The notes under the pieces: generated by a model
Told to the model about the DNA's origin: nothing
Seen by the model: the letters and a program-made list of their open reading frames with translations, nothing else
Database searches by the model: none
Program-made: the position numbers and the translations under genes
NCBI GenBank assembly: GCA_007123205.1
Contig: SKLM01000346.1
Span: 1 to 36,041 of the forward strand
Origin: Thermoflexales bacterium
GTDB taxonomy: Bacteria; Chloroflexota; Anaerolineae; B4-G1
Length of the DNA stretch: 36,041 nucleotides
Direction of reading: 5' to 3'
Shown here: positions 3,440 to 35,612 of the stretch, piece after piece
How the letters are laid out: every line of letters starts with the position of its first letter
How positions within the stretch are numbered: the stretch's first letter is position 1

Positions 3440-3468
3440 TTGACAGAATAGCGTCTATGTAGTATAAT
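3440..3468 (+). promoter_or_regulatory. Consensus sigma70-type promoter upstream of the opine-DH operon
   Basis: TTGACA (3440-3445), an exactly 17 nt spacer, then TATAAT (3463-3468). No other convincing promoter lies between here and the start at 3872. Confidence 0.6.
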
Positions 3469-3871
3469 ACGGTCGTACAGCATTCGTTGTACCCCGGCCA
3501 ATCTCCAGTTGGGACGTCTGGCCCGCCCCTGCGGGAGGAGGATCCGCAACGATCTTCCTGGTTCCCGGCAGATCACTTTGGCCACGCGACAGTACCCGTA
3601 GTAAGCGCCGTTCTACTTGTTGGACGCCAAGAATCGGGTCTCCGACCCATCTCTGGGACGTTCACGACACAATCTCCGTAGACAGACTGCAGACCTGCCA
3701 GGCGTCTTCGCCCCTGGCGTATGTGGTGCAGGTCCGATTGGAGCAGTGGCTGCCTCTCAGTCACCCTATGCTGTACCAATAGTCAGGGGCAAGGTTGCCC
3801 TTTGCCCCAGCGGCAATGATTGGGGCGTCCGAGCCCGGGGTCCGCACCTCTTCTACCAGGAAAGGAGGACA

Positions 3872-5134
3872 GTGTTGGCAAGAGTTGGCCTTTACGGTGT
3901 GAGCACGCAGTCGGGTCACGCTTTCCTGGCGGACTGCCTCTTGATGGGTCTCGACGTGTACGGATACGCGCGCCCGTCCCAGCATGGCATGGAGACAGTG
4001 GAGACGCTCGTCGAGCAAGGCGGGATCTACCTGCAGAGGCCGGCCGGTCGCGGGGAGGAAACCTCGAGATTCCTTCCTCTGGGGCAGGCCGAGGTTGGAC
4101 ATGATCTCAAGAGACTGGTCGATGGGTCCGATATCATCATCCTCGCTCATCCGTCCCATTACCAGGAGGATAGCGCCGGGCGGCTGAAAGAGGCAGGCCT
4201 GCTGGAGGAGCGCCGTGTCGTGCTCGTCCTCTCGCCCTCAAGGACTCTGGCGACGCCCTACCTATGGCGGATCCTCGGAGAGCACTATCCGGTCGTATGT
4301 TTCCAGACCTGCCCTTACTCATGCAAATCCACCTCCCCCGGCTCAACCTATATCAAACGAAGGAAGAACAGCTGGATCGGGTCGGTGGAGGGAGAGGTTC
4401 CCCGGGAACCCCTGGCCGCGTTGAAGCGGATGTTCCCCCAGTTGCTCACCAGCCGGATTCCTGCCACGACTTCACTGGGCAACATCGGGGCAGTGTTCCA
4501 CCCGGCCACTTACCTGCTGAACTATGATGGCATCCTGGCGGCGGCAGCAAAGAACACCGTCTTCCCTTTCTACGTTGAGGGTATCGCCGGAAACTCCCGC
4601 GTGGCCAGGGTCTTAGGGGAGATCGACCAGATCCGACTGCAGATCGCACGTGCGCTTGGCATCTCCGTCTTTGGGCTGGCGGATGATCCCAGAGAGGAGG
4701 AGTGGGCAGCCATCCTGAAGACGGTGCCGATGTCAGCAGAAGACTCGGCGGACACTCCGGAGCTAAAGCACTTGCGGGCGAAGTGCCTCCAGCCCATACA
4801 CGACTCAGTTGTCTCGGCACAACACTGGTTGGCCTACACCTATGGGGTCGCAAGAATTCCAGGCGAATCGCTGGGCGACGCCATCGGAAGAACGTCCACG
4901 TACCGGAGGAGATCGTATCCCCAGGAACGATACATCCACGAGGACGTTCCCACGGGCCTGGTTCCTCTCGAGAGCCTCGCTGACAGGCTAAGCATCCCAC
5001 ATGAGCCCATCACGCAGATCATCGATCTGTACCGAGAGGTGACGGGAAGGGATGGACGGAGGATTGGCAGGAACCTGGAGCCGTTCGATACCGAATACCT
5101 GAAGCGGTGTCTACAGGGTAGACTGGGGGCGTAG
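3872..5134 (+). CDS. Opine (octopine/nopaline-type) dehydrogenase family oxidoreductase
   Basis: ORF 3617..5134 is trimmed to the in-frame GTG 3872 (TTG 3875 is an alternative), just after AGGAGG at 3863-3868. The product tracks Arthrobacter-type opine dehydrogenase along its length as I remember it: ...GHAF near the N-terminus, TTSLGNIGAVFHPATYLLN, FPFYVEGI, and RYIHEDVPTGLVPLESLADRLSIP. Confidence 0.85.
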   Translation: MLARVGLYGVSTQSGHAFLADCLLMGLDVYGYARPSQHGMETVETLVEQGGIYLQRPAGRGEETSRFLPLGQAEVGHDLKRLVDGSDIIILAHPSHYQEDSAGRLKEAGLLEERRVVLVLSPSRTLATPYLWRILGEHYPVVCFQTCPYSCKSTSPGSTYIKRRKNSWIGSVEGEVPREPLAALKRMFPQLLTSRIPATTSLGNIGAVFHPATYLLNYDGILAAAAKNTVFPFYVEGIAGNSRVARVLGEIDQIRLQIARALGISVFGLADDPREEEWAAILKTVPMSAEDSADTPELKHLRAKCLQPIHDSVVSAQHWLAYTYGVARIPGESLGDAIGRTSTYRRRSYPQERYIHEDVPTGLVPLESLADRLSIPHEPITQIIDLYREVTGRDGRRIGRNLEPFDTEYLKRCLQGRLGA

Positions 5135-5135
5135 C

Positions 5136-7016
5136 GTGAGCAGGCGCTGTATGCTGGCCACGTTGGGAGACGACCCCCATACCCAGGGGCTGTACAGAGC
5201 CGCGCGGCTGGCCCGAAGAGCGGGGGTCGCCGTACACATCGTTCCGCCGGGAACACCGGATCGGGAGATTCTGGAGTGGATTCACCGGGAGGATCCGAGC
5301 TATATCGGCTTGAGCTACAGGCTCAGCCCCCAGATCGGTTTTCGACTGCTGACTCGGTTCTTGAGGCTTCTCGATGAGACGGGGCTGCTCCGCGAGGCCG
5401 ATGGAGCGCCGCGGAAGATCGCCTTCGCGGGCCTGCCCGACACAATGCGCGCTGTCGAAGAGGGGGAGGGGAGTCTTCCGTGCGCGGTCGCCACCATACA
5501 GCAGGATGATGACCTGCTCCAGAGGGCCGCAAGGGTGCTGCAGTTCTTTGAAGTGCCGGATTCGCCCAGACACGCCATTCTCCGAGAGCTTGAAGGCGAG
5601 GTCTATCCTCCCACCATAGCGGAGTTGGATCAGCTGGCCCGGGCGATCACCGCTGACGATTCGTACCGGGCCGAACCTCCGCTACCCGTTCCCTCAGCGG
5701 CGGCCATGCAGTCCCTGCCGCGACGCATGCGCGAGTCGGATATACCGGTTCTGCGAACGCACTTCGGCGTCCCTGGCGAGTCGATCCAGCCGACCGTCGA
5801 GGGGATGGCAGCCCTCGCCGAATCCAGGGTGGTCGACGAAATCTCGTTGGGTTCCTCGGACCTATCCCAACGATACTTCGGCAAGCCGGAGGAGTTCGTC
5901 GGGCGGAAGAACGACGGTGGCGTGCCCTACAAGACGTTCGACGACCTGGTGGAGCTGGCCCAGGCAGCGCGACGGGGTAACTTCCCCTCGGTGAAGCCCT
6001 ACGCCCACGTCGTCGATCTGGCGAGCTTCGTCGATACATGCATCGAGGCGGGCATGTTGACCGGAGCCCATCAAGCTATCCCGCTGTACTGGTTCAACGA
6101 GTTGGACGGCCGAGGCCCTATGACGGTCGCAGAATCGATCCGCCAACACCTGGCGGCGGTGAGAAGGCTGGCCGAACGGGACATCCCCGTCGAGATGAAC
6201 GATCCAAACCAGTGGTCATCCCGGTGGGCCCACGACACCATCATCTGCGCGGACTATGGGCTGATCACGGCTGTCATGCTCAACGCCGGCGTGCGCGATC
6301 TGGTGCTCCAGATGCAGGTCAACAAGCCCCGGGAGACCGGTGACCTGGCGGACCTGGCAAAGATGACCGCAAGCCTGGAACTGGTGAAGGAGCTGCTGCC
6401 CCGCGGTCGAGACAGGCCCACTGTGTGGAGGCAGACCCGAACGGGCGTCGGGTATTTCGATCCGGAACTCGATACCGCCAGGTTCCAGCTGGCGAGATCC
6501 ACCTTGCTGCAGATGCTGTTGTCGCCGGACATCATCCACGTGGTGAGCTACTGCGAGGCCGACCACGCGGCGACGGTGGAGGACATCGTGGACAGCTCGA
6601 AGCTGGTGAGACGGTGTGTTCGAGCTTTCAAGCAGCACGAGTCGCAGCTGAGGAGACACCTGCGCGACCCCATCGTGGTGGAGCGGCGAGCATTGCTGGT
6701 CGAGGAAGCACGATTCCTGCTGCGGAGGATCGCCCGTCTGGGCCCGGAGAGGGATGTGGCTCGACATCGCCGCCGACAGGCTGTCGACGGAGGCCCTCTG
6801 CGGCGGTTGGTGCCCGATCTTGCAGATGAGGGAGCGTTGATCGAAGCGTTGCGACGAGGCTACCTCGCTGCTCCCGGCATCTTCCATCCGGCATATCGGG
6901 CCTGCCGGAAGCTGACGACAGGACCGACCCAGAACGGGTTCATCGACTGCCTCGATCCGCGGACAGGCTTACGGGTGCCGGAAGACGTGAGACTGGCTTC
7001 GTCGGGACCTGGGTGA
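5136..7016 (+). CDS. Cobalamin-binding-domain protein fused to a large C-terminal domain (possible glutamate-mutase-E-like barrel); function unknown
   Basis: GTG 5136 lies 1 nt after the upstream stop (ATG 5151 is an alternative). Residues 13-18, DPHTQG, fit the DxHxxG B12 lower-ligand motif within CMLATLGDDPHTQGL...YIGLSYRLS...KIAFAGLPD. No CxxxCxxC radical-SAM motif is present. The segments RTHFGVPG, SLGSSDLSQRYFG, AIPLYWFNELDGRG, VEMNDPNQWSSRWAHD and GYLAAPGIFHP occur in the same order as comparable GlmE/MutE segments. That comparison is from memory and is not verified. Confidence 0.7.
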   Translation: MSRRCMLATLGDDPHTQGLYRAARLARRAGVAVHIVPPGTPDREILEWIHREDPSYIGLSYRLSPQIGFRLLTRFLRLLDETGLLREADGAPRKIAFAGLPDTMRAVEEGEGSLPCAVATIQQDDDLLQRAARVLQFFEVPDSPRHAILRELEGEVYPPTIAELDQLARAITADDSYRAEPPLPVPSAAAMQSLPRRMRESDIPVLRTHFGVPGESIQPTVEGMAALAESRVVDEISLGSSDLSQRYFGKPEEFVGRKNDGGVPYKTFDDLVELAQAARRGNFPSVKPYAHVVDLASFVDTCIEAGMLTGAHQAIPLYWFNELDGRGPMTVAESIRQHLAAVRRLAERDIPVEMNDPNQWSSRWAHDTIICADYGLITAVMLNAGVRDLVLQMQVNKPRETGDLADLAKMTASLELVKELLPRGRDRPTVWRQTRTGVGYFDPELDTARFQLARSTLLQMLLSPDIIHVVSYCEADHAATVEDIVDSSKLVRRCVRAFKQHESQLRRHLRDPIVVERRALLVEEARFLLRRIARLGPERDVARHRRRQAVDGGPLRRLVPDLADEGALIEALRRGYLAAPGIFHPAYRACRKLTTGPTQNGFIDCLDPRTGLRVPEDVRLASSGPG

Positions 7017-7034: not shown

Positions 7035-8105
7035 GTGAAAGTCGTTCTGGTCTATGATCCACGTTGGGGATACACACCCGCCGATCACACCCCTTTCTGG
7101 GCCAGTCTGGACACTGTAGAGTACGTGGCCGGACTGCTAGAGGAGACAGACAACGGCGTGTTGCTCGTCAAGGCTGACGACGGACTCGAATTCAGACTCA
7201 GGGAAATCTTGGGGAAGCACTCGAATCCTCTGGTGTTCTGGCTCAATAGCCACTTGCCGGCTGATTCTGGCAAAGACGTGCCCACTATCGAGATTTTGGA
7301 GAGGGTCGGGATCATGCACACTGGCCCTAGCTCTGAAGCCCAGGCTGTCGGCCGCGACAAAGAGGCAACGAAAACGGTTTTCAGAAGGCTGGGGTTGCCA
7401 ACGCCTGAATCCTATGTTGTTTGCCCCGGGGACTACTCACCGATCTGCCAAAGTGGTAATTGGGATGGCTATGTGATCGTGAAGCCGTTGCTACAGGGAA
7501 ACAGCAGGGGGATGGATGAGCTTTCTGTCGTTCGTGTGGACGATTTCGAGTCAATAAGGGAAAGAGCTGAACGAGTACACCTGGAATTCGACGAGCCTGT
7601 CCTCGTAGAAAGGTACATTGGAGGGAAGGGCGCAAGAGAATTCACTGCGTCAATGCTCATCTCTCACGATGGGAGAACAGCCGACCTGCCAATAGCGGAG
7701 ATCGATCTGTCTCAGGTTCCTGCTGCGCAGGGGAAGTTTAGGTTCTTGACCCACGACATAAAAGACGAGAAGTATTATCTGAAGACACCTGCAGAGCTTC
7801 CAGCAGAGATCATCAGCAGGATATCGTCCGATGTTGGAAGAATCGTCCAGGAGATTGGTTGCCGCGATATGACCAGAGTTGATATCAGGGGCGACTCCAC
7901 CGGTATCTGCTATATCGAAGTCAACGTCAATCCGGGCAAGAACAGGTTCAGCTACCTGACAGCATCGGCATATTCCCTCGGTTTGCGCTATCGCGAGATC
8001 ATCGCCTTCATCCCCTATCAAGCTATGCTCAAGTACAGGCTGGAACCTCCGAGAAAGCTGAGGGAGTTAGTAGGATCTGTCATGGCGTTGTTCGATGCCG
8101 TCTAG
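7035..8105 (+). CDS. D-alanine--D-alanine ligase-family ATP-grasp enzyme
   Basis: GTG 7035 lies 6 nt after GAAGGAG. The 356-aa product has Ddl-type ATP-grasp features: DKEATKTVFRRLGLPTPE, VIVKPLLQGNSRGM, VLVERYIGGKGAREFT, and MTRVDIRGDSTGICYIEVNVNPG. The canonical Ddl N-terminal GGxSxEHEVS motif is absent. Confidence 0.85.
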   Translation: MKVVLVYDPRWGYTPADHTPFWASLDTVEYVAGLLEETDNGVLLVKADDGLEFRLREILGKHSNPLVFWLNSHLPADSGKDVPTIEILERVGIMHTGPSSEAQAVGRDKEATKTVFRRLGLPTPESYVVCPGDYSPICQSGNWDGYVIVKPLLQGNSRGMDELSVVRVDDFESIRERAERVHLEFDEPVLVERYIGGKGAREFTASMLISHDGRTADLPIAEIDLSQVPAAQGKFRFLTHDIKDEKYYLKTPAELPAEIISRISSDVGRIVQEIGCRDMTRVDIRGDSTGICYIEVNVNPGKNRFSYLTASAYSLGLRYREIIAFIPYQAMLKYRLEPPRKLRELVGSVMALFDAV

Positions 8106-13642: not shown

Positions 13643-14245
13643 ATGCTAAAGGACCGCCGTAACTCGTCCATAAGGAGACGTCTCAGCACCCACGACCTCG
13701 CCGTGGCCGGCGTCTTCGGTGCCCTCGCTATCGTGCTGTCGTTCACACCGCTGGGGCTGATTCCCCTTCCCAACCCCACCGAGGCGGCCACCAGCCTCCA
13801 CCTGCCGGCTATCATCGCCGGTATCCTGTCGGGGCCCGTCGTTGGGGCGATGGTGGGGCTAGTGCTCGCCGTATCTTCCTGGTATCGTTTCGGGGCCACG
13901 TTCATCACCTTCGCCGACGGCAATCTCCTCGTCGCCCTATCGGCCGCTTTCCTGCCACGGATTCTCATCGGAGTGGCCGCCTATTACGTCTACCGGCCTC
14001 TCCGGCGCTGGCCGGCCCTGGCTGCTGGAGCATCGGGTCTTGCGGGTACGCTGACCAATACCCTTGGCGTCTTGGGGCTGCTGATATGGCTCGGAGCCCT
14101 GCCGGCAGCCCTCCTCGTGCCGGTCTTCTCGATGAACGTGCCCATCGAGGCTCTGCTGGCCGTCGTGGTCACGATACCGACGGTGGCGGCGCTCCGCTCG
14201 GTCGCCCGGCAGGGTGTGGCGGGAGCAAGAGAGCACGAAGAGTAG
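13643..14245 (+). CDS. ECF transporter substrate-specific (S) component; pantothenate (PanT-like) plausible from coaX linkage only
   Basis: AAGGAGAAGCTC precedes ATG 13643. The 200-aa product is a multi-pass hydrophobic protein (STHDLAVAGVFGALAIVLSF..., SLHLPAIIAGILSGPVVGAMVG...). It sits immediately upstream of ecfA1-ecfA2-ecfT. Confidence 0.75.
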   Translation: MLKDRRNSSIRRRLSTHDLAVAGVFGALAIVLSFTPLGLIPLPNPTEAATSLHLPAIIAGILSGPVVGAMVGLVLAVSSWYRFGATFITFADGNLLVALSAAFLPRILIGVAAYYVYRPLRRWPALAAGASGLAGTLTNTLGVLGLLIWLGALPAALLVPVFSMNVPIEALLAVVVTIPTVAALRSVARQGVAGAREHEE

Positions 14246-14250
14246 GCCCT

Positions 14251-15111
14251 ATGGCCCCCTTCATTGAGACGCGCGGGCTCTACCACGTCTTTCGACTGGA
14301 GGACGGCAGGCAGATCGCAGCCGTGCGCGCCGTGGACCTGACCATCGGGCGAGGGGAGTTCGTCGCCCTGATCGGACCAAACGGTTCGGGGAAATCGACT
14401 CTGGCCCGCCATTTCAACGCCCTCCTCCTCCCTACCTCGGGAAGCGTCTGGGTTGACGGCCTGTCGACGGCGGATCCGGCCAATCTATGGCGGATCCGCC
14501 GACGGGTGGGGATGGTGTTCCAGAACCCCGAGAATCAGATCGTAGCCAGTACGGTGGAGGAGGACGTCGCCTTCGGACCCGAGAACCGGGCGCTTCCCCC
14601 GGCCGAGATCCGTCAGCGCGTCGACGATGCGCTGGCCCTCGTCGGCTTGCGGGACCAGCGCACAACCCCGCCGCAGATGCTGTCCGGTGGCCAGAAACAG
14701 CTTCTGGCCGTCGCCGGCGCGCTGGCCGCCCGCCCTGATTGCATCGTCTTCGACGAGCCCACGTCGATGCTCGACCCGCGCGGGCGGCACCAGGTGATGG
14801 ATACCATTCGCCGGCTCAACAGCGAGGCGGGGCTGACGGTCGTCCTGATCACGCAGGCGATGGAGGAAGCCACTGCCGCCCGACGCATCCTCGCCATGGA
14901 CCGGGGACGGATCGTGCTCCAGGGCGATCCCCGGGCGGTCTTCGCGCAAGAGGAGCGACTGGCGGATCTGGGGCTGGAACTGCCGCCTATGGCCGATATC
15001 GCGCGTCGACTGCGCCAGCACGGGGTTCCGGTCTCGCCGGGCATACTGAGCCTGACGGAGCTGACACGGGCGCTGGAGGCCGAGCTACGGGCCGGGGTGA
15101 CCCCTTGCTGA
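14251..15111 (+). CDS. ecfA1: ECF transporter ATPase component A1
   Basis: ORF 14086..15111 is trimmed to ATG 14251, 5 nt after the S-component stop. Walker A is GPNGSGKST, the signature is LSGGQKQ, Walker B is IVFDEPTSMLD. The ECF-type C-terminal tail is present. Confidence 0.9.
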   Translation: MAPFIETRGLYHVFRLEDGRQIAAVRAVDLTIGRGEFVALIGPNGSGKSTLARHFNALLLPTSGSVWVDGLSTADPANLWRIRRRVGMVFQNPENQIVASTVEEDVAFGPENRALPPAEIRQRVDDALALVGLRDQRTTPPQMLSGGQKQLLAVAGALAARPDCIVFDEPTSMLDPRGRHQVMDTIRRLNSEAGLTVVLITQAMEEATAARRILAMDRGRIVLQGDPRAVFAQEERLADLGLELPPMADIARRLRQHGVPVSPGILSLTELTRALEAELRAGVTPC

Positions 15112-15992
15112 TCGAGGTGGAGAGCTTATCTCACATCTTCGCCGCCGGCACGCCGCTGAGGCGGGAAGCCCTGCGCGATGTGAATTTCCGCGTCGAGACC
15201 GGCGAGCGGGTCGGTATTGCGGGACACACCGGCTCTGGCAAATCGACCCTGGTGCAGCTCCTGGCCGGATTGCTCAAGCCGACGGCGGGCCAGGTTCTGC
15301 TCGATGGTGTACCGGCGCACGGGCACAACACCACCGCTCGAGATCGGAGACGGCGGATGGGAATGGGGTTTCAGTACCCGGAGGATCAGATCTTCGAGGG
15401 CACGGTCTTCCGCGAGGTGGCCTTCGGCCCCCGCAACGCGGGCCTGAAGGGCAAAGAGCTGCAGGCCCGGGTAACCTGGGCCCTGGGGATGGTCGGGCTG
15501 GATGCGGACACCGTGATGGAACGGGTTCCGTACACACTGAGCGGTGGCGAGACCCGCCGAGTGGCCCTGGCCAGCACCATCGCGCTTCAGCCTGAGGTGC
15601 TGATCCTCGACGAGCCCACGGCGGGACTGGATCCCCGGGGGCGGGATGAGCTTCTGACGCAGATCGGGGACTGGCACACCAGGACGGACCTTACCTTGAT
15701 CGTGGTCTCGCACGACCTCACCGTCCTGGCTAGGACCGTCGACCGGGTGATCGTCCTCCGGGGCGGGAGAGTCAGCGCCAGCGGTCCCGTCCGACATGTG
15801 CTGAGTGGTACTGCGACCCTTCGCGAATCGGGATTGGATCCCCTTCCGTCCGTCCTGCTCCTCGAGCAGGTCCGAGCCGGAGGAGCGTCGGTGCGGATCG
15901 ACCGGTTCTTGCCGGAAGAGGCCGCTGCCGAGATCGCTCGCGCACTCGAGGCCGGAACCCGGAGCCATGTCACCCGGCGGGAGTCCGCATGA
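15105..15992 (+). CDS. ecfA2: ECF transporter ATPase component A2
   Basis: ORF 14739..15992 is trimmed to the in-frame TTG 15105, which overlaps the ecfA1 stop (GTG 15117 is an alternative). The product starts LLIEVESLSHIF..., with Walker A GHTGSGKST, signature LSGGETRR and Walker B LILDEPTAGLD. Confidence 0.9.
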   Translation: MLIEVESLSHIFAAGTPLRREALRDVNFRVETGERVGIAGHTGSGKSTLVQLLAGLLKPTAGQVLLDGVPAHGHNTTARDRRRRMGMGFQYPEDQIFEGTVFREVAFGPRNAGLKGKELQARVTWALGMVGLDADTVMERVPYTLSGGETRRVALASTIALQPEVLILDEPTAGLDPRGRDELLTQIGDWHTRTDLTLIVVSHDLTVLARTVDRVIVLRGGRVSASGPVRHVLSGTATLRESGLDPLPSVLLLEQVRAGGASVRIDRFLPEEAAAEIARALEAGTRSHVTRRESA

Positions 15993-16876
15993 GTCTGCTC
16001 CTCCCGGGCGTGCACGTGCCCGTCGACTCACCCGTGCACCGACTCGACCCCCGTCTCAAGATGGTGGTAGCGCTGGTCCTGATGGCGCTCCCCTTCGCCG
16101 CGCCCGGAGTTATGAGCAGCTTGCTGCTTGTGGCTGCAATCGTCGCTATCGCCCGATTGTCGGCGGCTCCGCTCAGGGCGCTGCTGGGCACGCTGCGAAC
16201 CGTCTTCTGGCTCGGGTTGTTCATGTTCTTCTTCTACTTCTTCACCACACCGGGTCAGCCCTTGCTCGCCTGGCGCGGCGTGGCCGTGACCTGGGAGGGC
16301 ACAGTCCGGGGGGCGGTCCAGATCTACAGGCTCTGTCTGCTGGTGATCATCTCGTCTCTTCTGACGTTTACCACTTCGCCGGGCCAGCTGGCCCAGGGGC
16401 TGGAAGCCTCCCTGAGGCCGCTGTCCCGTGTGGGCGTACCGATCCGCGAGCTGGCTCTGGTGCTTACCATCGCTCTGCGATTCGTGCCAACCCTCGTCGA
16501 CCAGGTGGACAAGATCACCAAGGCCCAGCGGGCCCGCGGCGCCGACTTCCATTCGTGGAAGCCCTGGCAGCGAGTCAAGGCCTGGGTCCCCATCTTCGTA
16601 CCCATCTTTGTCGCCGCCTTTCGCCGCGCCGATGACCTGGCAACTGCCATGGAGGCCCGCGGGTTCCGCGGAGCCAGGCGCCGCACACACCTGCGGGAGC
16701 TCAGCCTCACGCGTGAGGACCTGGTCGCCGCGATCGTCGTCGTCATAACCGTCCTGGTGGTGCTGACCGTCGACCGGTCCCCGAACCTCGGGGCTCGCCC
16801 GCATCTGGGGCCAGCGGCGCTCACCGCGGCCCAGCCGACACAGCACCGCGCACTGGAGGATGATTCATGTTACTGA
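15989..16876 (+). CDS. ecfT: ECF transporter transmembrane (T) component
   Basis: The start overlaps the ecfA2 stop as ATGA. CbiQ/EcfT features are present, including the coupling-helix region ALRFVPTLVDQVDKITKAQRARG and ATAMEARGF. Confidence 0.9.
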   Translation: MSLLLPGVHVPVDSPVHRLDPRLKMVVALVLMALPFAAPGVMSSLLLVAAIVAIARLSAAPLRALLGTLRTVFWLGLFMFFFYFFTTPGQPLLAWRGVAVTWEGTVRGAVQIYRLCLLVIISSLLTFTTSPGQLAQGLEASLRPLSRVGVPIRELALVLTIALRFVPTLVDQVDKITKAQRARGADFHSWKPWQRVKAWVPIFVPIFVAAFRRADDLATAMEARGFRGARRRTHLRELSLTREDLVAAIVVVITVLVVLTVDRSPNLGARPHLGPAALTAAQPTQHRALEDDSCY

Positions 16877-17634
16877 CCATAGACATCGGGAACACGAACA
16901 TCACCTTCGGTCTGTACGAAGGCGATGTGCTGGGCCCGCGCTGGCGTATCCGCACTATCCATGAGAAGATGCCCGACGAGTATGGGATCCTCATGGTGCA
17001 GCTCTTTGGTCACTGCGGGTACGCAGCGGGAGACGTGGGTGGCGTCGCCATTGCAAGTGTCGTGCCACCGCTGACGCAGGCTTTCGCCGAGGTGTCGCGT
17101 AAGTACCTGGAGCAGACTCCCCTCATCGTCGATGCGGGGGTGCGCACAGGCGTTCCCATCCGCTACGACGACCCGCGACAGGTCGGCGCGGACCGCGTGG
17201 TCGACGCCGCCGCAGTCCGCGCCCTCTACGGTGTACCTGCGTGCGTGGTCGACTTTGGGACGGGCACTACGTTTGACGCGGTGTCAGCCGAGGGCCATTA
17301 TCTCGGTGGGGCCATCGCCCCGGGGATCGGCATCGCGGCACAGGCTCTGTTCGAACGTACGGCCAAACTGCCCAGGGTGGAGCTGACCCGCCCGCCTTCG
17401 GCCATCGGCCGCAATACGCCTCACGCGATGCAATCGGGACTCCTGTTCGGCTACGTAGGACTGGTCGAGGGGATGGTGGCGCGCTTCAAACGGGAGCTGG
17501 GAGCCAACACCCGCGTCGTCGCCACGGGCGGTATGGCGGAGCTCATCGCCGTCGAGACGGACGCCATCGATGTCGTCGATCCTTGGCTTACCCTCCATGG
17601 ACTGCGCATCGTCTACGAGCTGAATCAGGAGTAG
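16867..17634 (+). CDS. coaX: Type III pantothenate kinase
   Basis: The product starts MLLTIDIGNTNITFGLY... and contains GADRVVDAAA, VVDFGTGTTFD and VVATGGMAELI. The start overlaps the ecfT 3' end by 10 nt. Confidence 0.9.
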   Translation: MLLTIDIGNTNITFGLYEGDVLGPRWRIRTIHEKMPDEYGILMVQLFGHCGYAAGDVGGVAIASVVPPLTQAFAEVSRKYLEQTPLIVDAGVRTGVPIRYDDPRQVGADRVVDAAAVRALYGVPACVVDFGTGTTFDAVSAEGHYLGGAIAPGIGIAAQALFERTAKLPRVELTRPPSAIGRNTPHAMQSGLLFGYVGLVEGMVARFKRELGANTRVVATGGMAELIAVETDAIDVVDPWLTLHGLRIVYELNQE

Positions 17635-18763: not shown

Positions 18764-18790
18764 GACCCGGGGATGACCGGTTCCCGGGTC
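18764..18790. terminator. Strong hairpin at the convergent carD-like / ygiQ junction
   Basis: GACCCGGG-GATGACCGGTT-CCCGGGTC gives a perfect 8-bp stem. It overlaps the ygiQ stop codon and has no clear U-tract. Confidence 0.3.
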
Positions 18791-20540
18791 ATCGGCCCTG
18801 CGACGGGGTGACGATGCGCTTATGCATCCTCTTGCCTCTGAAACTCTTCTCGACGAAGATCCTCGCGCCCGTGAAGGGGTCCATCTCGGTGTAGTACATC
18901 AGCGTCGCGTACGTCGAAGGTGTGGGGGTGAAGATCTGTACCTGCTCCGGGAGCAACCCTAACTCGCGTAGGGCAAAACCGCGGAGGCGACGCATATCCT
19001 GCTCCGTACAGCCAGGATGGGCAGCGATCACGTAGTAGGTGAGATACTGCGGCAAGTGCGCCCGTTCCGTGGCGTCGAGAAAACGTTGGCGGAACTCCAG
19101 CAGGGACGCCGGACCCGGTTTCCCCATCGCTTGGAGGACCCGCTCCTCCGTATGCTCAGGCGCCACTTTCATCTGCCCCGAGACGTGATGCGCCACCACC
19201 TCGTCCAGGTACGTGTCACCATGAGATTCGTCGTGCAGCAGCAAGTCGTACCGCAGGCCCGACGACACGAAGACCTTCTTCACGCCCGGCAACCGTCGCA
19301 ACCGCCGGAGTAGATCGAGATGGCGGCTGTGATCAACGGGTAGGCTCGGGCAGACGTCAGGGTAGAGACAGCGCCGGTCGGGGCAAGCCCCCTCCCGCGA
19401 TTTCTTAGAACACTCGAACCCGTACATGTTCGCGGTAGGCCCGCCGACATCCTGGATGTAGCCCTTGAAATCGGGGTGCTCCACGAGCTGCCGCGCCTCG
19501 CGCTCCACGGACTCGGGACTGCGCCAGCGCACCGTGCGGCCCTCGTGGACCGCGATGCTGCAGAAGGTGCACTCACCATAGCAGCCGCGATGGGTGCTGA
19601 GCGCGAAAGCTATGGTCTCCAGAGCCTTGATCTTCCCCTGGCTGCGGTAAAAGGGGTGGGCGTCCCGCTCGAAGTCGAGGGCGTACACCCCATCCAATTC
19701 CTTCTGGGTCAGGTACGGCATTGGGGCGTTATGGATCAGGTATCGGTCCCCGTACCGCTGGGTGAGCCCACGGGCCCCGGCTTGGCTGCGCACGCTTTGC
19801 GGATCGTTGTTCTGGTAGAACGTGTGGAACATCTCGATGAAGGCCCGCTTGTCCTCGCGCACCACCTCGTAGGGAGGCAGCTCCACGGAGGCTGAGCGCG
19901 CCTCGTCGTCCACGTAGCACAGCCCCCGGAGATGACGGGGGCTGGTCCCGAAGCGCATGGCATCGGCAAAGGCCACCACGCTCTTCTCCGCCATCCCGTA
20001 GATGAGGTAGTCGGCTTTGGCGTCGAGAAGCACAGAGCGGCGAATGGCGTCGTCCCAGTAGTCGTAGTGGGCCACCCGTCGAAGACTGGCCTCCAGACCT
20101 CCCAGGACAATCGGCACGGTGTCCTTGTAGTACCGTCTGATGAGATTGGTGTAGACGATGGCAGCCCGGTCGGGGCGCCGGTCATTCCGTCCGCCGGGCG
20201 TATAGTCATCCGATCGGCGCGGCTTCTTCAGGGCGGTGTAGTTGGCCACCATCGAGTCGACGCTCCCACCGGAGACGCCCCAGAAGAGGGCCGGCTCGCC
20301 AAGCCGGGTGATGTCATCGGGGCTGTGGATGTCGGGTTGAGCAATGACCCCGACGCGGTATCCCACATCGGCCAGTGTATGCCCCACGAGGGCAATCCCG
20401 ATGTGGGGGCTGTCGATGTAGGCGTCGCCCGTCACCAGGATCACGTCCAGTTGATCCCATCCCCGCTGCCGCAACTCCTGACGAGTGGCCGGTAAGAACA
20501 TAGCCGCCCAGATTGTGCCACGGAGAGGGCGTGGCGTCAA
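18789..20540 (-). CDS. ygiQ: YgiQ-family (UPF0313) radical SAM protein
   Basis: The radical SAM motif is HRGCYGECTFCSIAVHEGR. The YgiQ-type N-terminus IWAAMFLPATRQELRQRGWDQLDVILVTGDAYIDSPH resembles E. coli YgiQ as I remember it. The start is TTG 20540, overlapping the purB TGA as TTGA (ATG 20501 is an alternative). Confidence 0.85.
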   Translation of the reverse strand: MTPRPLRGTIWAAMFLPATRQELRQRGWDQLDVILVTGDAYIDSPHIGIALVGHTLADVGYRVGVIAQPDIHSPDDITRLGEPALFWGVSGGSVDSMVANYTALKKPRRSDDYTPGGRNDRRPDRAAIVYTNLIRRYYKDTVPIVLGGLEASLRRVAHYDYWDDAIRRSVLLDAKADYLIYGMAEKSVVAFADAMRFGTSPRHLRGLCYVDDEARSASVELPPYEVVREDKRAFIEMFHTFYQNNDPQSVRSQAGARGLTQRYGDRYLIHNAPMPYLTQKELDGVYALDFERDAHPFYRSQGKIKALETIAFALSTHRGCYGECTFCSIAVHEGRTVRWRSPESVEREARQLVEHPDFKGYIQDVGGPTANMYGFECSKKSREGACPDRRCLYPDVCPSLPVDHSRHLDLLRRLRRLPGVKKVFVSSGLRYDLLLHDESHGDTYLDEVVAHHVSGQMKVAPEHTEERVLQAMGKPGPASLLEFRQRFLDATERAHLPQYLTYYVIAAHPGCTEQDMRRLRGFALRELGLLPEQVQIFTPTPSTYATLMYYTEMDPFTGARIFVEKSFRGKRMHKRIVTPSQGR

Positions 20541-21943
20541 TCCAACCTGCGCACCATGTCCGCCACCTTCCTGGCTCGCAGCGGGGCGTCGCCAATGTGT
20601 TGGCCCGCGTCCAACAACTCCCTGATGGAGCCGTTGGAGAGGTAACCGAGGATCTGCGGATCGGTCGTCAGGCGATCAGCTAGAGGATTCGGGTCCCCGG
20701 CTTGAACCGCCTGCCAGGCTGCCATTGAGTGTTGGCGGATGACCTCGTGCATCGCCTGCCGGTCGGCCCCCAGCCGCACCAATTCCATCAGCAGGCGCTC
20801 CGTGGCCGCGAAGGTGCCGTAGGTGGCCATGTTGCGGGCGATGGCTTCGTCGTGGATCTGCAGACCCTGCAGAATGCGATGCGCACGCCTGAGCAGCTCG
20901 TCGGTGGCCAAGAACGTTCCGGGGAGGATCACACGCCGATTGGCCGAGTCGTCGAGGGTGCGCTCGAGCAGGGTATGGGCAGCATTGTCCCACGCCACGC
21001 GCACCATGGCCGCGACGTAGCGAGCCATGCTGCCCATATTCTCCGCGTTGATGGGGTTGCGCTTGAAGGGCATGGCGGACGAGCCTACCTGCTTCGCGCC
21101 AAAGGGCTCACTCCACTCACCGAAGGGCGGAGACTGCAACAGCCGCAGGTCGAAGGCGAAACGGTAGAGCGAGGCCGCCATCCCTGCCAGAGCAGCTAGC
21201 ACCTGGTAGTCCTGCTTCCGAGGGTAGATCTGCGTCACGACGGGAAACGGCTCCATATCGAGCTCGGCCATCACCAGATCCTCGAGCTCGGCCGCTGTCA
21301 TCCCGGTTCCTGACAGCAACTGCACGTAAGAGGCACCCGTCCCGACCGCGCCCTTGATCCCCTTACCACGGATGTCATCCCGCAACCGGTCCAGGAGATG
21401 GTAGTCCTCCAGGAGCTCCGTGGCGTAGATCGACAGGCGGTATCCGACGGTCGTCGGCTCGGCCGGCTGCAGGTGCGTGAAGCCCATGCACGGCTGTGCG
21501 GCGCGCCCATCGATGAGATCAGCCAGGTCGCCCAGTACCACCCGCAGTTTCTTCAGGAGCACGTCGAGCCCATCCCTGAGGCGGAGAGCATCAGCGTTGT
21601 CCTGGATGTCGGCGCTGGTAGCGCCCAGGTGGATGATGGGTCCGGCGAGGGGACACTGTTCGGCATAAGCATGCACCCCGGCCATGACGTCGTGATGGAT
21701 CTCGGCCTCGATCTGGGCGATTCGCGCCAGATCCAACTGATCCTGGTGGGCGACCAGATCGGCCACTTGCTCCGGCCCCACTAGCCCGGCCTGTAGCTGC
21801 GCTGTCGCCAGCGCCACCCAGACGCGGCGCCAGAGCCGATGCTTGTGCTCCTCGCTCCAAATGGCACGCATCTCGTCGGATCCGTACCGCCAACTGAAGG
21901 GGGAAAGGAACGTCTCGTGAGTCAAGGTGGTCTCACCCGCCAT
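20537..21943 (-). CDS. purB: Adenylosuccinate lyase
   Basis: ORF 20537..22018 is trimmed to ATG 21943 (GGAGG 7 nt upstream). The product starts MAGETTLTHETFLSPFSWRYGSDEMRAIWSE... and contains GATSADIQDNA and the fumarate-lyase signature GSSAMPFKRNP. Confidence 0.9.
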   Translation of the reverse strand: MAGETTLTHETFLSPFSWRYGSDEMRAIWSEEHKHRLWRRVWVALATAQLQAGLVGPEQVADLVAHQDQLDLARIAQIEAEIHHDVMAGVHAYAEQCPLAGPIIHLGATSADIQDNADALRLRDGLDVLLKKLRVVLGDLADLIDGRAAQPCMGFTHLQPAEPTTVGYRLSIYATELLEDYHLLDRLRDDIRGKGIKGAVGTGASYVQLLSGTGMTAAELEDLVMAELDMEPFPVVTQIYPRKQDYQVLAALAGMAASLYRFAFDLRLLQSPPFGEWSEPFGAKQVGSSAMPFKRNPINAENMGSMARYVAAMVRVAWDNAAHTLLERTLDDSANRRVILPGTFLATDELLRRAHRILQGLQIHDEAIARNMATYGTFAATERLLMELVRLGADRQAMHEVIRQHSMAAWQAVQAGDPNPLADRLTTDPQILGYLSNGSIRELLDAGQHIGDAPLRARKVADMVRRLD

Positions 21944-22035
21944 GCATCCGCCTCCTGTGGGTGCGCAACTTAGCGTCGTTCGAACGTGCATAGCTCGGGC
22001 CCAGGACCATTTGGTCACCCGGCCCAGCGATGGTG

Positions 22036-24830
<2,795 letters not shown>

Positions 24831-24843
24831 CTCCGGTAGACTC

Positions 24844-25521
24844 CTACTCCACGATGTAGCTCGAAACCGCCGCTGCCGGGTCTTGCTCCGCCAGGAACGC
24901 GTTGATGGCCCCGTCGTACGCTGCCGTGTGGTCAAAGCCCCTGCGGGCTAACTCGAAGCGCCGCTGCAGATTCAGTTTGCCATCGTGGGCCTGCAGGGTG
25001 GCGAGCAGCACCGGATACTCCGCCGGTTCAACCACGACCGCCACCCGCAAGTAGTTCTTGGCAGCCGCCCGCACCATGCACGGCCCGCCGATGTCGATAT
25101 TGGCGCGAGCTTCCTCCACGGTCACATCCGCCCGCGCCACCGTGGCCTGAAACGGGTAGAGGTTGACCACCACCATGTCGATCGGCAGCGCACCCGTGCG
25201 CACCAGATCGGACTGGTGGGACGAGTTGTACGTCTCGGCGAGGAGTCCCAGGTATATCTTGAAGTCCAGTGTCTTCACCAGGCCCCCCTGCATCTCCGGC
25301 TGCCCCGTGTAGTCCGCCACTGCTGTCAGGTGTCGGCCGGTCCGCTCCGGTCCCAGGATCTCCGCGATAGCCGCGAAGGTCCCTCCCGTGGAGTAGAACT
25401 GGACGTCGCGGTTGACCCCGATCAGGCCCGGGATGAGGATGTCCAGCCCAGTCTTGTCGGAGACACTGACAAGCACGCGCCGGATGGTGATCCAATCGTC
25501 AACGCGCTGAACGATATTCAT
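24844..25521 (-). CDS. purH: IMP cyclohydrolase / MGS-like domain protein (N-terminal half of canonical PurH, encoded separately)
   Basis: The product contains RRVLVSVSDKTGL, YSTGGTFAAI, GGLVKTLDFKIYLGLL, DMVVVNLYPF, IDIGGPCMVRAAAKNY and TAAYDGAINAFL. It ends with TAG at 24844-24846. Confidence 0.85.
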   Translation of the reverse strand: MNIVQRVDDWITIRRVLVSVSDKTGLDILIPGLIGVNRDVQFYSTGGTFAAIAEILGPERTGRHLTAVADYTGQPEMQGGLVKTLDFKIYLGLLAETYNSSHQSDLVRTGALPIDMVVVNLYPFQATVARADVTVEEARANIDIGGPCMVRAAAKNYLRVAVVVEPAEYPVLLATLQAHDGKLNLQRRFELARRGFDHTAAYDGAINAFLAEQDPAAAVSSYIVE

Positions 25522-25579
25522 AGGCCTCGACTCCCCCGCTCACAAGCGTCCCATGCATCGACATCGGTATGGAGAAGGA

Positions 25580-26206
25580 TCACCGCGACGAGCCAGGAGC
25601 GGGTTGCCGTTCCTCGCAGAGCAGCTGATGGAGCGCCTGCACCAAGAGGCGATGCTCCAATGTGTGAATCCGCTCCTTCAGCTCCTCAAGGCTCTCCTCT
25701 GGATGGATCCGAACGACCTCTTTGACCACCACAGGGCCGGCATCCACCGCTTCGTCTGGCACCAGGTGGACCATGACGCCCGTCCGCTCGATCTCGTCGC
25801 GCTGAAAAGCCCTGTACGCCCGTGCGATAGCGTCGGTTCCGGCGAATTCACCGGGGAGCGCGGGGTGCAAGTTGATCACCCGGGAGGGGAAACGGGTCAG
25901 GAAGGCGTCGCTCCAGACGTGCATCCAGCCGGCCATCACCACCCAGGTGACGTCGAAGCTCTCCAAGAGGCCCGCCAGATCGGCATCATACTCATCGCGC
26001 GGCCTACCCGCCCTGGTGTAGGGCGCCATGGGGAAGTAGATTACCGGGATACCGTGGCGCACGGCCCGTCTGATGCCGCAGGCTTCTCGCCGGTTGGAGA
26101 CGACCAGGGCGAGCTCGACGTCCGGAAGCCTGCCGCCCTCAACGGCGTCGATGATCGCCTGGAGATTCGAACCGAAACCGGAGACTAGCACAGCGATCCG
26201 CGTCAT
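25580..26206 (-). CDS. purN: Phosphoribosylglycinamide formyltransferase
   Basis: The product starts MTRIAVLVSGFGSNLQAIIDA... and contains VVMAGWMHV, INLHPALPGEF and GVMVHLVPDEAVDAGPVV. GGAAGGGGAG is the RBS. Confidence 0.9.
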   Translation of the reverse strand: MTRIAVLVSGFGSNLQAIIDAVEGGRLPDVELALVVSNRREACGIRRAVRHGIPVIYFPMAPYTRAGRPRDEYDADLAGLLESFDVTWVVMAGWMHVWSDAFLTRFPSRVINLHPALPGEFAGTDAIARAYRAFQRDEIERTGVMVHLVPDEAVDAGPVVVKEVVRIHPEESLEELKERIHTLEHRLLVQALHQLLCEERQPAPGSSR

Positions 26207-26227
26207 GGCCCTTCGCTCCCCTTCCGC

Positions 26228-28681: not shown

Positions 28682-28709
28682 TCGGTCTCTCCCTCTACCT
28701 CACATCCCT

Positions 28710-30149
28710 CTACCAGGACTCGAACATGTCCTTCCCAATGGCGGCCACTGCGGGGACAGGGTACTGTCCAGTGAAACAGGCAAGGCAATGCCCGCCATCG
28801 TGGGCTCCGACGGCATCGAGAAGGCCCTGCACGGAGAGGTACGCCAGGCTGTCGGCACCGATCTGAGACCCGATCTCCTCGACCTCCATCCGCGCCGCGA
28901 TCAACTCCTCGTGGGTGCTCATGTCGACCCCCATGTAACACGGATGTCGAAGCGGCGGCGAAGCCACGCGCATATGGATCTCGGCGGCACCGGCTTGACG
29001 CACGAGATCGACGATGGCCCTGCTGGTGGTACCGCGCACGATGGAGTCGTCGACCATAATGATGCGCTTGCCCCTCCCGACCAAGTCGGGCAACGGATTG
29101 AACTTGAGGGCCACCCCACGCCGCCGCAAGCGATCATCGGGCTGGATGAAGGTTCGACCTATGTAGCGGTTCTTGATCAACACTTCGCCGAAGGGGATGC
29201 CGGCCTCGTTGGCGTAGCCAATGGCATGAGCGGTCGCTGAATCGGGCACGCCGATGACCATATCCGCATCCACAGGATGCTCCTGCGCCAGGCGCTCGCC
29301 CAGACGGCGGCGCACCTGATGAACGGAGCGACCCTCCAACAGGGAGTCGGGACGGGCGAAGTAGATGTACTCGAACACACAAAGCGACCGATCAGATTTC
29401 GGCTCCACTCCCTGCCAGGCCGTCATGCCGTTATGGTCCAGTCGTATCACCTCCCCCGGCCGCACCTCGCGAAGGAAGGTGGCGCCAATGGTCGCCAGGG
29501 CGGACGACTCCGAGGCCAACACCCATCCAGACTTAGCTGCGCACGCTTGGTCGTTCAGATGTCCCACGCAGAGGGGCCGGAAGCCCCAGGGATCCCGGAC
29601 GCCGAAGACGGCCTCCCGCGTGAGGATCGCCAGGGAATAGGCTCCCTCCGCGAGTTCCATCAGAACGCCGATGCGCTCCCTCCAGGTATCGCCCTCTGCT
29701 CCCGCCAGCATCTGGCTGATCACCTCGGTATCAGACGAGGAGATCAACCCGACCCCTCCGTACAGCAGCTCACGCCGCAGCACCGCGGCGTTCGTCAGGT
29801 TGCCGTTGTGAGCGACTCCCAGGGGCCCGAGGGCCGTCTCCAGCAGGTAAGGCTGGCTGTTCCTCAGTCTGGATGCGCCCGTCGTGGAGTAACGGTTGTG
29901 CCCAATGGCCAAATGGCCCTGGAGAATCTGGAGATGATCCTCATTGAAGACGTGCGACACCAGGCCGTTTCCCCGATGGAGGAAGGCCCGCTTTCCATCG
30001 GAGGTGGCGATCCCGGCACTCTCCTGTCCGCGATGCTGGAGCGCATAGAGCCCAAAGAACGTCAGCCGTGCGACGTTCGTGTCAGGGGCATAGATCCCGA
30101 GCACCCCACAAGACTCCCGGGGGCGGGGCGCGAGCGGAGTCGCGATCAT
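28710..30149 (-). CDS. purF: Amidophosphoribosyltransferase (propeptide-bearing, Fe-S type)
   Basis: ORF 28710..30308 is trimmed to ATG 30149, one nt after the purE stop. MIATPLAPRPRES precedes the catalytic Cys in CGVLGIY. The product also contains LQHRGQESAGI, the PRPP loop IIMVDDSIVRGTTS and C-terminal cluster cysteines (PCYMGVD, CLACFTGQYP). Confidence 0.9.
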   Translation of the reverse strand: MIATPLAPRPRESCGVLGIYAPDTNVARLTFFGLYALQHRGQESAGIATSDGKRAFLHRGNGLVSHVFNEDHLQILQGHLAIGHNRYSTTGASRLRNSQPYLLETALGPLGVAHNGNLTNAAVLRRELLYGGVGLISSSDTEVISQMLAGAEGDTWRERIGVLMELAEGAYSLAILTREAVFGVRDPWGFRPLCVGHLNDQACAAKSGWVLASESSALATIGATFLREVRPGEVIRLDHNGMTAWQGVEPKSDRSLCVFEYIYFARPDSLLEGRSVHQVRRRLGERLAQEHPVDADMVIGVPDSATAHAIGYANEAGIPFGEVLIKNRYIGRTFIQPDDRLRRRGVALKFNPLPDLVGRGKRIIMVDDSIVRGTTSRAIVDLVRQAGAAEIHMRVASPPLRHPCYMGVDMSTHEELIAARMEVEEIGSQIGADSLAYLSVQGLLDAVGAHDGGHCLACFTGQYPVPAVAAIGKDMFESW

Positions 30150-30150
30150 C

Positions 30151-30624: not shown

Positions 30625-30681
30625 CGACACCCTCTCTCTCATAGATCAAATCAAGCTTGTCTGAGCCAGGTTAGCCCAGCC

Positions 30682-31665: not shown

Positions 31666-31712
31666 TGTGCTTCATATGCCTTGCAGATTAAGCCAGTACG
31701 ACCAGCCGGGCC

Positions 31713-32540: not shown

Positions 32541-32615
32541 CGCCAACAGCTCCTCCGCCAACCGACTGCGCCGGCATGCCGGACCATGGCCAGCCGTGAG
32601 CCAGCCTCACAGGCC

Positions 32616-35570: not shown

Positions 35571-35612
35571 GGTTCCCATCCTTGATCAAGTGGTCAGATA
35601 CTAGCTGAGTTC

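Follow-up and report, generated by a model that had tools for sequence, protein, structure and literature searches.

The stretch of DNA analysed here, referred to as the window, comprises 36,041 nucleotides of contig SKLM01000346.1 (assembly GCA_007123205.1) from a Thermoflexales bacterium of the phylum Chloroflexota. On its forward strand lies a unit of three genes, which encode, in order, a protein of the opine dehydrogenase family, a 626-amino acid protein with the domain architecture of a cobalamin (vitamin B12)-dependent mutase, and a Ddl-like ATP-grasp ligase (Table 1). The second protein, here termed the mutase, is the main subject of this report, and the dehydrogenase is termed its partner. 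The mutase is a single-chain relative of the two subunits of glutamate mutase, GlmS and GlmE, and belongs to a widespread family in which the residues that bind glutamate are replaced. It is probably an adenosylcobalamin (AdoCbl)-dependent isomerase that acts on a substrate other than glutamate and works with the opine dehydrogenase; we put the probability of this reading at roughly 0.7.

Table 1. Genes, protein domains and a promoter-like site of the three-gene unit (positions in the window).
Feature	Position	Strand	Basis and remarks
Promoter-like site TTGACA-17-TATAAT, upstream of the operon (putative)	3440..3468	+	12/12 sigma-70 consensus positions; consensus match only
Opine dehydrogenase-family gene, 419 amino acids	3875..5134	+	Octopine_DH, profile, AlphaFold2 (AF2) model/Foldseek
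Mutase gene, 626 amino acids, GTG start codon	5136..7016	+	Open reading frame
Mutase residues 1-138, cap-less Rossmann-type cobalamin-binding domain, GlmS-like	5136..5549	+	DPHTQG (5172-5189), SYRL 60-63, AGLP 98-101
Mutase residues 139-200, helical linker, aligns with GlmE N-terminal helices	5550..5735	+	Secondary structure of the model, hhalign at low mact
Mutase residues 201-500, GlmE-like (βα)8 barrel	5736..6635	+	Model, Foldseek, hhalign
Mutase residues 501-626 and stop codon, C-terminal helical subdomain, equivalent to GlmE ~352-441	6636..7016	+	Model, hhalign
Ddl-like ATP-grasp ligase gene, 356 amino acids, third gene of the unit	7035..8105	+	Dala_Dala_lig_C, E 1.3e-16

The mutase and its family

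The start codon of the mutase gene is found one base past the TAG (5132-5134) of the dehydrogenase gene, and it is upheld by the alignment of homologues, where N-termini correspond as MSRRCMLATLG and MRKSCVLATLG. The family to which the protein belongs is large. It includes at least 782 homologue clusters at 90% identity, with proteins of about 610-635 amino acids each, and a sample of 41 sequences displays a mean column identity of 60%. An exhaustive profile search, sister subfamilies included, yields at least 497 representatives at 50% identity from at least 12 phyla; among these are two more distant full-length subfamilies, designated X and Y, with identities of 24-34%, and several fusion proteins. 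Nearly all members are annotated as 'hypothetical' or 'cobalamin B12-binding domain-containing protein'. Pfam has no model for the barrel of these proteins, none of the curated models covers it and no source names a function. Scans of the window mutase with Pfam and NCBIfam give a sub-threshold B12 match and chance matches (MerD, fvmX6) only.

An earlier reading, made from the sequence without database searches and called here the sequence-only reading, had assigned the first ~130 residues to a B12-binding domain that carries the motif DPHTQG at residues 13-18. A script check places the motif exactly there, and the domain itself is borne out by family-profile matches, by the presence of PF02310 in relatives and by the conservation of the motif, in which H15 and G18 are invariant in the family. 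The wider family profile, distant subfamilies included, matches two B12 domains of solved structure, 4jgi (E 1.3e-07) and 2yxb, labelled 'coenzyme B12-dependent mutase' (E 5e-06), and PF02310 is matched by 36 of the 42 relatives over which conservation was counted (best E 1.1e-10). Two further cobalamin signatures are found in altered form. The serine of the SxL position (S60, in SYRL) is at least 90% conserved and the leucine is changed to an invariant Arg62; in the GG position (AGLP) the first glycine is changed to alanine and G99 is at least 90% conserved. The domain starts at residue 1, as in GlmS. The helical cap that is typical of methyl-transfer corrinoid proteins, B12-binding_2, is found by Pfam in none of the 42 relatives.

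The remaining ~490 residues had been described as lacking the CxxxCxxC motif of radical S-adenosylmethionine (radical-SAM) enzymes, which is correct: cysteines are present at residues 5, 116, 302, 371, 473, 494, 590 and 605 and none forms this motif. The same reading had quoted five segments as resembling GlmE. All are present in the protein (RTHFGVPG, residues 207-214; SLGSSDLSQRYFG, 237-249; AIPLYWFNELDGRG, 314-327; VEMNDPNQWSSRWAHD, 352-367; GYLAAPGIFHPAY, 575-587), and by the alignment of homologues they rank among the best-conserved blocks of the family. The C-terminal part had also been noted as unusually rich in arginine. The enrichment is real, with 19% arginine in residues 481-600, and is mostly compositional. 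The whole protein has 11.3% arginine and 1.8% lysine; relatives of low GC content have lysine at the arginine positions of the tail, and over this region the family averages 15% arginine plus lysine. Part of the arginine surplus is a lineage-specific insertion, 'ERDVARHRRRQAVDGG', which has low pLDDT and, like the arginine-rich stretch, lies in the C-terminal subdomain. We take the tail to be a helical subdomain of ordinary basic character whose high arginine content is a matter of composition.

Relationship of the barrel to GlmE

The AF2 model of the mutase (pLDDT 89.6, pTM 0.91) displays a Rossmann domain, a helical linker, an eight-fold β/α pattern and then helices. When it is compared with the PDB by Foldseek, the top match is GlmE of glutamate mutase, 1cb7_B, at E 4.6e-10, over 505 columns and with a template-modelling (TM) score of 0.64 normalised to the target. 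Lysine 5,6-aminomutase, IcmF, ornithine 4,5-aminomutase, methylmalonyl-CoA mutase and 2-hydroxyisobutyryl-CoA mutase follow, and the best 39 matches are all barrels of AdoCbl isomerases (GlmE, KamD, OraE, IcmF and the two CoA-ester mutases just named, MCM and HCM). Identity to GlmE is about 13-14% in both structural and profile alignments.

At the sequence level the similarity to GlmE is remote and comes to light with profiles. The GlmE reference sequence was verified against 1cb7_B (483/483 positions), and a diverse GlmE profile was built from divergent genuine GlmEs in plasmid records (24-64% identity, annotated as methylaspartate mutase E), several of whose genes adjoin glmS, glmL and methylaspartase genes. 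The superfamily profile that includes the window mutase matches this profile by hhalign with a probability of 96.5% and an E-value of 8.4e-10 over 375 columns, family positions 193-617 against GlmE 50-441, and at low mact the alignment reaches back to family position 135 and GlmE 11. In the C-terminal subdomain, GYLAAPGIF of the mutase stands opposite GVMDIPFGP of GlmE. The quoted segments are co-linear with GlmE in the order that had been claimed. Met_asp_mut_E (PF06368) is the sole barrel family matched among the 42 relatives; eight match it, with only P0134 over the gathering score (27.5 versus 26.6 bits). The profile check that had been suggested thus gives a GlmE-like C-terminal domain, from hhalign and from these eight relatives. 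In addition, MutL/GlmL, an accessory protein encoded in operons for glutamate mutase, occurs as a fusion in three relatives (E 1e-55 to 1e-82), and fusion to an ATP-grasp protein of the GshB/RimK type is also seen.

Less sensitive comparisons do not reveal the relationship. PDB sequence searches with the protein, the core-family profile and the wider profile find the N-terminal domain only, and P0134 alone as a PDB query does not detect GlmE. By hhalign, a single GlmE sequence gives a weak match (E 0.005) and a shallow, Clostridium-only GlmE profile E 0.0015; subfamily-wise hhalign to the shallow set is not significant, and a hidden Markov model of that set returns nothing useful. It was the collection of divergent GlmEs from plasmids that resolved the weak signal.

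Residues of the substrate site

The roles of GlmE residues in glutamate binding, including the 'arginine claw' of R66, R100 and R149, follow published structures. Their counterparts in the mutase family were obtained from a profile-based map, the register of which is uncertain by about ±1. In this map R66 corresponds to H209 (41 of 42 relatives), R100 to Q245 (40 of 42) and R149 to Y289 (all 42); H150 corresponds to A290, with A, S or C in relatives, E171 to the variable Q313, Y177 to F320 of the mutase, and Y181 to D324, again in all 42. The glutamate-binding residues R66, R100, R149, H150, E171 and Y181 are therefore all replaced. E330 of GlmE, which contacts the ribose of the adenosyl group, appears to be retained as E474 in 41 of 42 relatives.

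These substrate residues are kept in 18 of 19 genuine GlmEs, including Streptomyces proteins of 24-30% identity and a fused protein of Roseibium, and their substitution by other residues indicates that the mutase is not a glutamate mutase. The superfamily has an invariant polar set of its own, R207, H209, Q245, Y289, D324, R326, E353, R363, D367, R435, H468 and E474; its richness in basic residues suggests a polyanionic substrate. The proposal that the protein is a fusion of the S and E subunits, in that order and with strongly diverged substrate residues, is upheld by hhalign and by the residue map. A fusion of this kind has a precedent, since the fused Roseibium enzyme keeps the glutamate site and is a genuine GlmE.

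A separate case was seen in a GlmE paralogue of Fusobacterium vincentii (L067, 401-1858), 43% identical to GlmE of Clostridium cochlearium, in which the substrate residues are changed: GlmE positions 66, 100, 149, 150, 171, 177 and 181 are occupied by Y, R, K, H, D, H and F. Possibly this represents another shift of specificity, within GlmE proper.

The opine dehydrogenase partner

The start of the partner gene at 3875 is based on a ribosome-binding site, AAAGGAGGA (3861-3869), on the N-termini of homologues and on a 419-amino acid database protein with 100% identity. The protein matches Pfam Octopine_DH (PF02317) at E 8.5e-21, and its family profile matches 1bg6, the N-(1-D-carboxyethyl)-L-norvaline dehydrogenase CENDH, at E 2.7e-27. 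Its AF2 model has a pLDDT of 93; Foldseek returns 1bg6 at E 4.2e-19 with a TM score of 0.83, and the 12 best matches, among them the staphylopine, pseudopaline and yersinopine enzymes, are opine dehydrogenases without exception. The family conserves the blocks NxGAVFHP and RYxxEDxPTGLVPL, and H209, R352, E356 and D357 (dehydrogenase numbering) are invariant. In sequence and predicted fold, the partner is a true opine dehydrogenase homologue. It carries an insertion of ~45 residues, and in the core family the dinucleotide-binding loop, GxYGxSSQSGxAF, is one residue longer than the classical GxGxxG/A. Partners in subfamily Y carry a classical loop, GGNGGHA, and the predicted βαβ unit of the core partner is intact.

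Gene neighbourhoods across genomes

Loci were collected from species-representative genomes (58) and from metagenome contigs (five), and flanking open reading frames were clustered; counts are given over 64 loci. An opine dehydrogenase gene, with which the mutase gene appears to be translationally coupled, is found within 7 kb of it, always in the same direction, at 55 of the 64 loci and in at least 12 phyla. At eight of the nine loci that lack it, the contig ends within ~300 bp of the mutase gene on one side; L030 is the sole dehydrogenase-less locus with full flanks. An ATP-grasp ligase of one of three types is near the mutase at 30 loci. Genes of glycan synthesis (DegT aminotransferase, GT4, the Bac_transf priming transferase, PGA_cap and aldo-keto reductase) are found at 27 loci, chiefly in Bacteroidales, Flavobacteriia, Hydrogenedentota and some Clostridia. 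The mutase/dehydrogenase pair is followed by a major facilitator superfamily (MFS) transporter gene in Gemmataceae and Myxococcota, and in Bacillaceae, Thermotogota, Tissierellia and Brevefilum the pair stands alone amid unrelated genes. At all 64 core loci, the surrounding ±10 kb hold none of the genes that characterise true glm loci, namely glmS, glmL and methylaspartate ammonia-lyase (methylaspartase).

The pairing extends beyond the core family. Distant subfamilies X and Y, as well as the MutL-fused and ATP-grasp-fused relatives, have an Octopine_DH gene directly upstream and usually an adjoining ATP-grasp gene. As the dehydrogenase partners are homologous across subfamilies (E 2e-24) and the pairing recurs in the distant ones, the module is older than the subfamily split. 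The idea that the dehydrogenase substitutes for MutL was ruled out, because the MutL-fused relatives also have a dehydrogenase upstream; MutL is an optional addition and no alternative to the dehydrogenase.

The ligase of the window is homologous to the ligase beside a distant-subfamily mutase (26% identity, E 8e-09). It matches Ddl/VanA proteins of the PDB at E 1e-14, and its best score with the NCBIfam Ddl/Van models is 89.9 bits, below the cut-off of 243. Its sequence marks it as a Ddl-type ATP-grasp protein and no more, well removed from genuine Ddl enzymes.

Two observations on neighbouring genes are recorded here. In subfamily X, a gene of the class-I glutamine amidotransferase/peptidase-C26 type follows the dehydrogenase-mutase-ligase unit (L076, 8640-9407; L082, 3762-4463), which hints at gamma-glutamyl amide chemistry. 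At L081 (1450-3578, reverse strand), Mur-ligase and FemAB-family genes are found on the strand opposite to a MutL-fused relative and its dehydrogenase. Mur-ligase and FemAB-family proteins are enzymes of peptidoglycan peptides.

Transcription and habitat

An untranslated leader of ~400 nucleotides (3469-3874, forward strand) separates the promoter-like site from the start of the dehydrogenase gene; it is transcribed from at least 3634, where a metatranscriptome contig starts. Contigs from a soda-lake metatranscriptome cover the leader, the dehydrogenase gene and part of the barrel, and one RNA contig (5003-5495) bridges the dehydrogenase/mutase junction. This indicates expression and co-transcription of the two genes; these are assembled contigs, and carry-over of DNA is possible. 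DNA contigs from two metagenome runs part from the window sequence exactly at 3437, so the upstream edge of the operon may be a junction that varies between strains. A regulatory RNA in the leader was considered and rejected: the leader gives no Rfam match at any threshold and a folding z-score of -1.95, and it is not conserved in the closest relative, L006. A tRNA scan found no tRNA.

The organism of the window is present in metagenomes of soda lakes, salt lakes and alkaline sediments. The bare two-gene module has three carriers in culture (L041, L042 and L045), all of them haloalkaliphilic Bacillaceae: Amphibacillus marinus, Halolactibacillus alkaliphilus and Natronobacillus azotifigens. There may be a link between the stand-alone two-gene form and haloalkaline habitats.

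Proposed function

We infer the form of the cofactor, the type of reaction, the class of substrate, and the order and direction of steps as follows. The mutase would be a single-chain enzyme of the GlmS-GlmE lineage with a different substrate. Its N-terminal domain would bind AdoCbl in the base-off/His-on form via His15 of DPHTQG, and the barrel would hold the substrate and the 5'-deoxyadenosyl group, with Glu474 in the role that Glu330 of GlmE has at the ribose. Homolysis of the Co-C bond would generate an adenosyl radical that abstracts a hydrogen from the substrate; a 1,2 shift of the carbon skeleton would follow, and the hydrogen would be returned. The general mechanism of B12 carbon-skeleton mutases is summarised in PMC8473912. 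The dehydrogenase would couple an amine with a 2-oxo acid at the expense of NAD(P)H, and would make or consume a secondary-amine polycarboxylate of the opine or iminodiacid kind.

The preferred substrate would be an N-substituted, glutamate-like opine, in which an N-alkyl-glycyl fragment migrates as glycyl does in glutamate. An opine-type substrate is proposed in view of the dehydrogenase partner, the loss of the amino-group residue and of the arginine claw, and the conserved basic residues. This assignment is tentative and the odds do not favour it. The ATP-grasp ligase may then link the branched acid through an amide to an amine, which in the glycan loci would be an amino sugar that the DegT aminotransferase produces; elsewhere an amino acid, or nothing, may be the acceptor. 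The broader proposal, equally speculative and with the balance again leaning the other way, is that a new AdoCbl carbon-skeleton mutase acting on an opine forms, with the dehydrogenase, an ancient module that builds branched polycarboxylate amines. If so, the products might be amide-linked to capsules or O-antigens in gut Bacteroidales, Flavobacteriia and Hydrogenedentota, and exported by MFS transporters as chelator-like or solute-like molecules in Gemmataceae, Myxococcota and haloalkaliphiles. A new reaction would be added to the few of the B12 isomerases, and some surface-glycan structures would depend on vitamin B12.

Several observations weigh against the view that the mutase is an AdoCbl isomerase of the GlmE lineage that acts with an opine dehydrogenase on an opine. 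The window protein alone scores 23.9 bits with PF02310 (residues 4-67), below the cut-off of 32.1, and Met_asp_mut_E does not match it even at E <=1. The core-family alignment alone gives E 0.0066 with the diverse GlmE profile, so that the link to GlmE at the sequence level is made by bridging through the distant subfamilies. Lys326 of GlmE, the second ligand of the adenosyl ribose, corresponds to V470 in 40 of 42 relatives, and the register of the residue map carries its uncertainty of about ±1. Use of NAD(P)H by the partner is uncertain because of its atypical loop. Genes for a MutL-like reactivase, an adenosyltransferase and cobalamin functions are absent within ±10 kb of every core-family locus. 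Lastly, the opine-type substrate is argued from gene pairing and from the basic, polar character of the active-site set.

Alternative explanations

The nearest conventional explanation is that the enzyme still converts L-glutamate to 3-methylaspartate by means of other binding residues, and that the dehydrogenase and ligase process the 3-methylaspartate. GlmE is indeed the closest fold and profile match, and the neighbourhoods give a hint of glutamate chemistry in PGA_cap, peptidase-C26 and a ligase of the GshB/RimK type. Nevertheless, residues that persist in nearly all genuine GlmEs down to 24% identity are all replaced here and, unlike in true glm operons, methylaspartate ammonia-lyase is not nearby; we consider continued glutamate mutase activity unlikely. 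An aminomutase dependent on both pyridoxal phosphate (PLP) and AdoCbl, of the lysine 5,6- or ornithine 4,5- kind, with a dehydrogenase that oxidises the shifted amine, would fit the position of KamD and OraE barrels next to GlmE in the Foldseek results (E 1e-08 to 1e-07). Aminomutases and dehydrogenases are a known pairing in the fermentation of lysine and ornithine. Such an enzyme is, however, very unlikely: aminomutase Pfam families are matched by none of the 42 relatives, the B12 domain and linker have no invariant lysine where Kam and Ora have their PLP-lysine site (the first conserved lysine is K258), and the partner is an opine dehydrogenase and not of the diamino-acid dehydrogenase type.

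The module might also run in the catabolic direction, the mutase making a branched opine-like compound from the environment linear and the dehydrogenase splitting it to an amino acid and a 2-oxo acid. Opine dehydrogenases are reversible. The stand-alone pairs of Bacillaceae, Thermotogota and Tissierellia, set amid unrelated genes, and the MFS transporters that flank the pair in Gemmataceae and Myxococcota would fit a catabolic module. Nearly half of the loci, however, are clearly biosynthetic, with ATP-grasp, DegT, glycosyltransferase or priming transferase genes, and the unit of the window itself terminates in a ligase, which makes catabolism an improbable general role, if less so than the two possibilities above. 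Least probable is a B12-binding protein without isomerase activity, for instance a corrinoid protein of the methyl-transfer type, a sensor of light or of B12, or a relic. The sub-threshold PF02310 score of the window protein and the lack of conservation at K326 would be in keeping with it, but cap, DNA-binding and methyltransferase domains are all absent, the Foldseek matches to MetH and corrinoid proteins are limited to the N-terminal domain, the barrel is strongly conserved across phyla (60% column identity) and MutL fusions occur among the relatives. The reading we prefer remains that of an AdoCbl isomerase which has a substrate other than glutamate and works with the opine dehydrogenase.

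Novelty and significance

The kind of enzyme and its fold are already known; what is new is a distinct and widespread family, a redesigned active site and a fixed partner. A full-text literature search, incomplete in its coverage, found no account of the mutase family or of a pairing between a B12 mutase and an opine dehydrogenase, and no B12 enzyme in opine pathways. About a dozen reactions of AdoCbl-dependent isomerases are known and, to our knowledge, only two of the carbon-skeleton mutases, glutamate mutase and 2-methyleneglutarate mutase, use free acids and not CoA esters. The size and conservation of this unnamed family, together with its altered active site and constant enzymatic partner, make it a strong candidate to catalyse a new reaction that depends on B12. 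Since the module is located in clusters of the capsule or O-antigen type in gut Bacteroidales, it could link the availability of B12 to surface-glycan chemistry. The cultured haloalkaliphilic Bacillaceae that carry the bare two-gene module make the hypothesis directly testable.

Other genes in the window

Downstream of the three-gene unit, a transporter of the energy-coupling factor (ECF) type is encoded at 13643-17634 on the forward strand (S component, two ABC ATPases and a CbiQ-type T component), followed by type III pantothenate kinase. At 18789-20540, on the reverse strand, there is a radical-SAM protein of the YgiQ type (Radical_SAM_N, Radical_SAM, DUF3362), which is unrelated to the mutase finding. 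A purine operon occupies 20537-35579 of the reverse strand, with purB, IMP dehydrogenase, purH, purN, purF, purC and purQ, and with fused purD-purM (817 amino acids) and purS-purL (987 amino acids). In this operon purH appears to be split (23544-25521, reverse strand): one open reading frame, 24844-25521, has MGS and AICARFT profile positions 1-61, and the second, overlapping one, 23544-24935, has AICARFT positions 77-311. A frameshift or an assembly error may be the cause.

Comparison with known systems

Glutamate mutase of C. cochlearium, formed by GlmS (sigma) and GlmE (epsilon) (PDB 1cb7, 1ccw, 1i9c), is the closest known system. Shared properties are a cap-less cobalamin domain with the DxHxxG motif, a (βα)8 barrel, a C-terminal helical subdomain and, by the residue map, an apparent equivalent of Glu330. 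The S-then-E order is that of the glm genes, and relatives of the mutase are fused to GlmL/MutL. The mutase differs in being one polypeptide, in its replaced glutamate-binding residues and the change of K326 to valine, and in having an opine dehydrogenase as partner and no methylaspartase as neighbour.

The fused S-E methylaspartate mutase of Roseibium aggregatum (WP_229006650.1, 664 amino acids) resembles the window protein in its single chain and domain order. It starts with the cobalamin motif GDSHSVG and, unlike the window protein, keeps every GlmE substrate residue. Its gene lies on a plasmid (locus L075, 3164-5158), beside genes for an adenylation-domain protein, an aromatic amino-acid lyase and a racemase. 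As this is a cluster of the non-ribosomal peptide synthetase type and the glutamate site is intact, the fusion presumably supplies 3-methylaspartate for a non-ribosomal peptide.

The aminomutases KamDE and OraSE, which rank second among the fold matches, also combine an AdoCbl barrel with a B12 domain of the Rossmann type, and their substrates are amino acids. Unlike the mutase, they are PLP-dependent and have the PLP lysine in the B12-binding subunit, and their Pfam families are unmatched here.

On the side of the partner, CENDH (1bg6), octopine dehydrogenase (3c7a) and the staphylopine, pseudopaline and yersinopine dehydrogenases share the fold, the conserved histidine and the RYxxED block, and the MFS transporters that some phyla have next to the pair are reminiscent of cnt metallophore operons. 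The partner differs from known opine dehydrogenases in its atypical dinucleotide loop and its insertion. We know of no opine pathway that includes a B12 enzyme. A functional analogy, with no sequence relationship found or claimed, may be drawn to the PylB-PylC-PylD pathway of pyrrolysine biosynthesis, which likewise combines a radical mutase that rearranges the carbon skeleton of an amino acid, a Ddl-like ATP-grasp ligase and a dehydrogenase that depends on NAD and has a C-N bond as its target. PylB, unlike the mutase, is a radical-SAM enzyme, and PylD is outside the opine dehydrogenase family.

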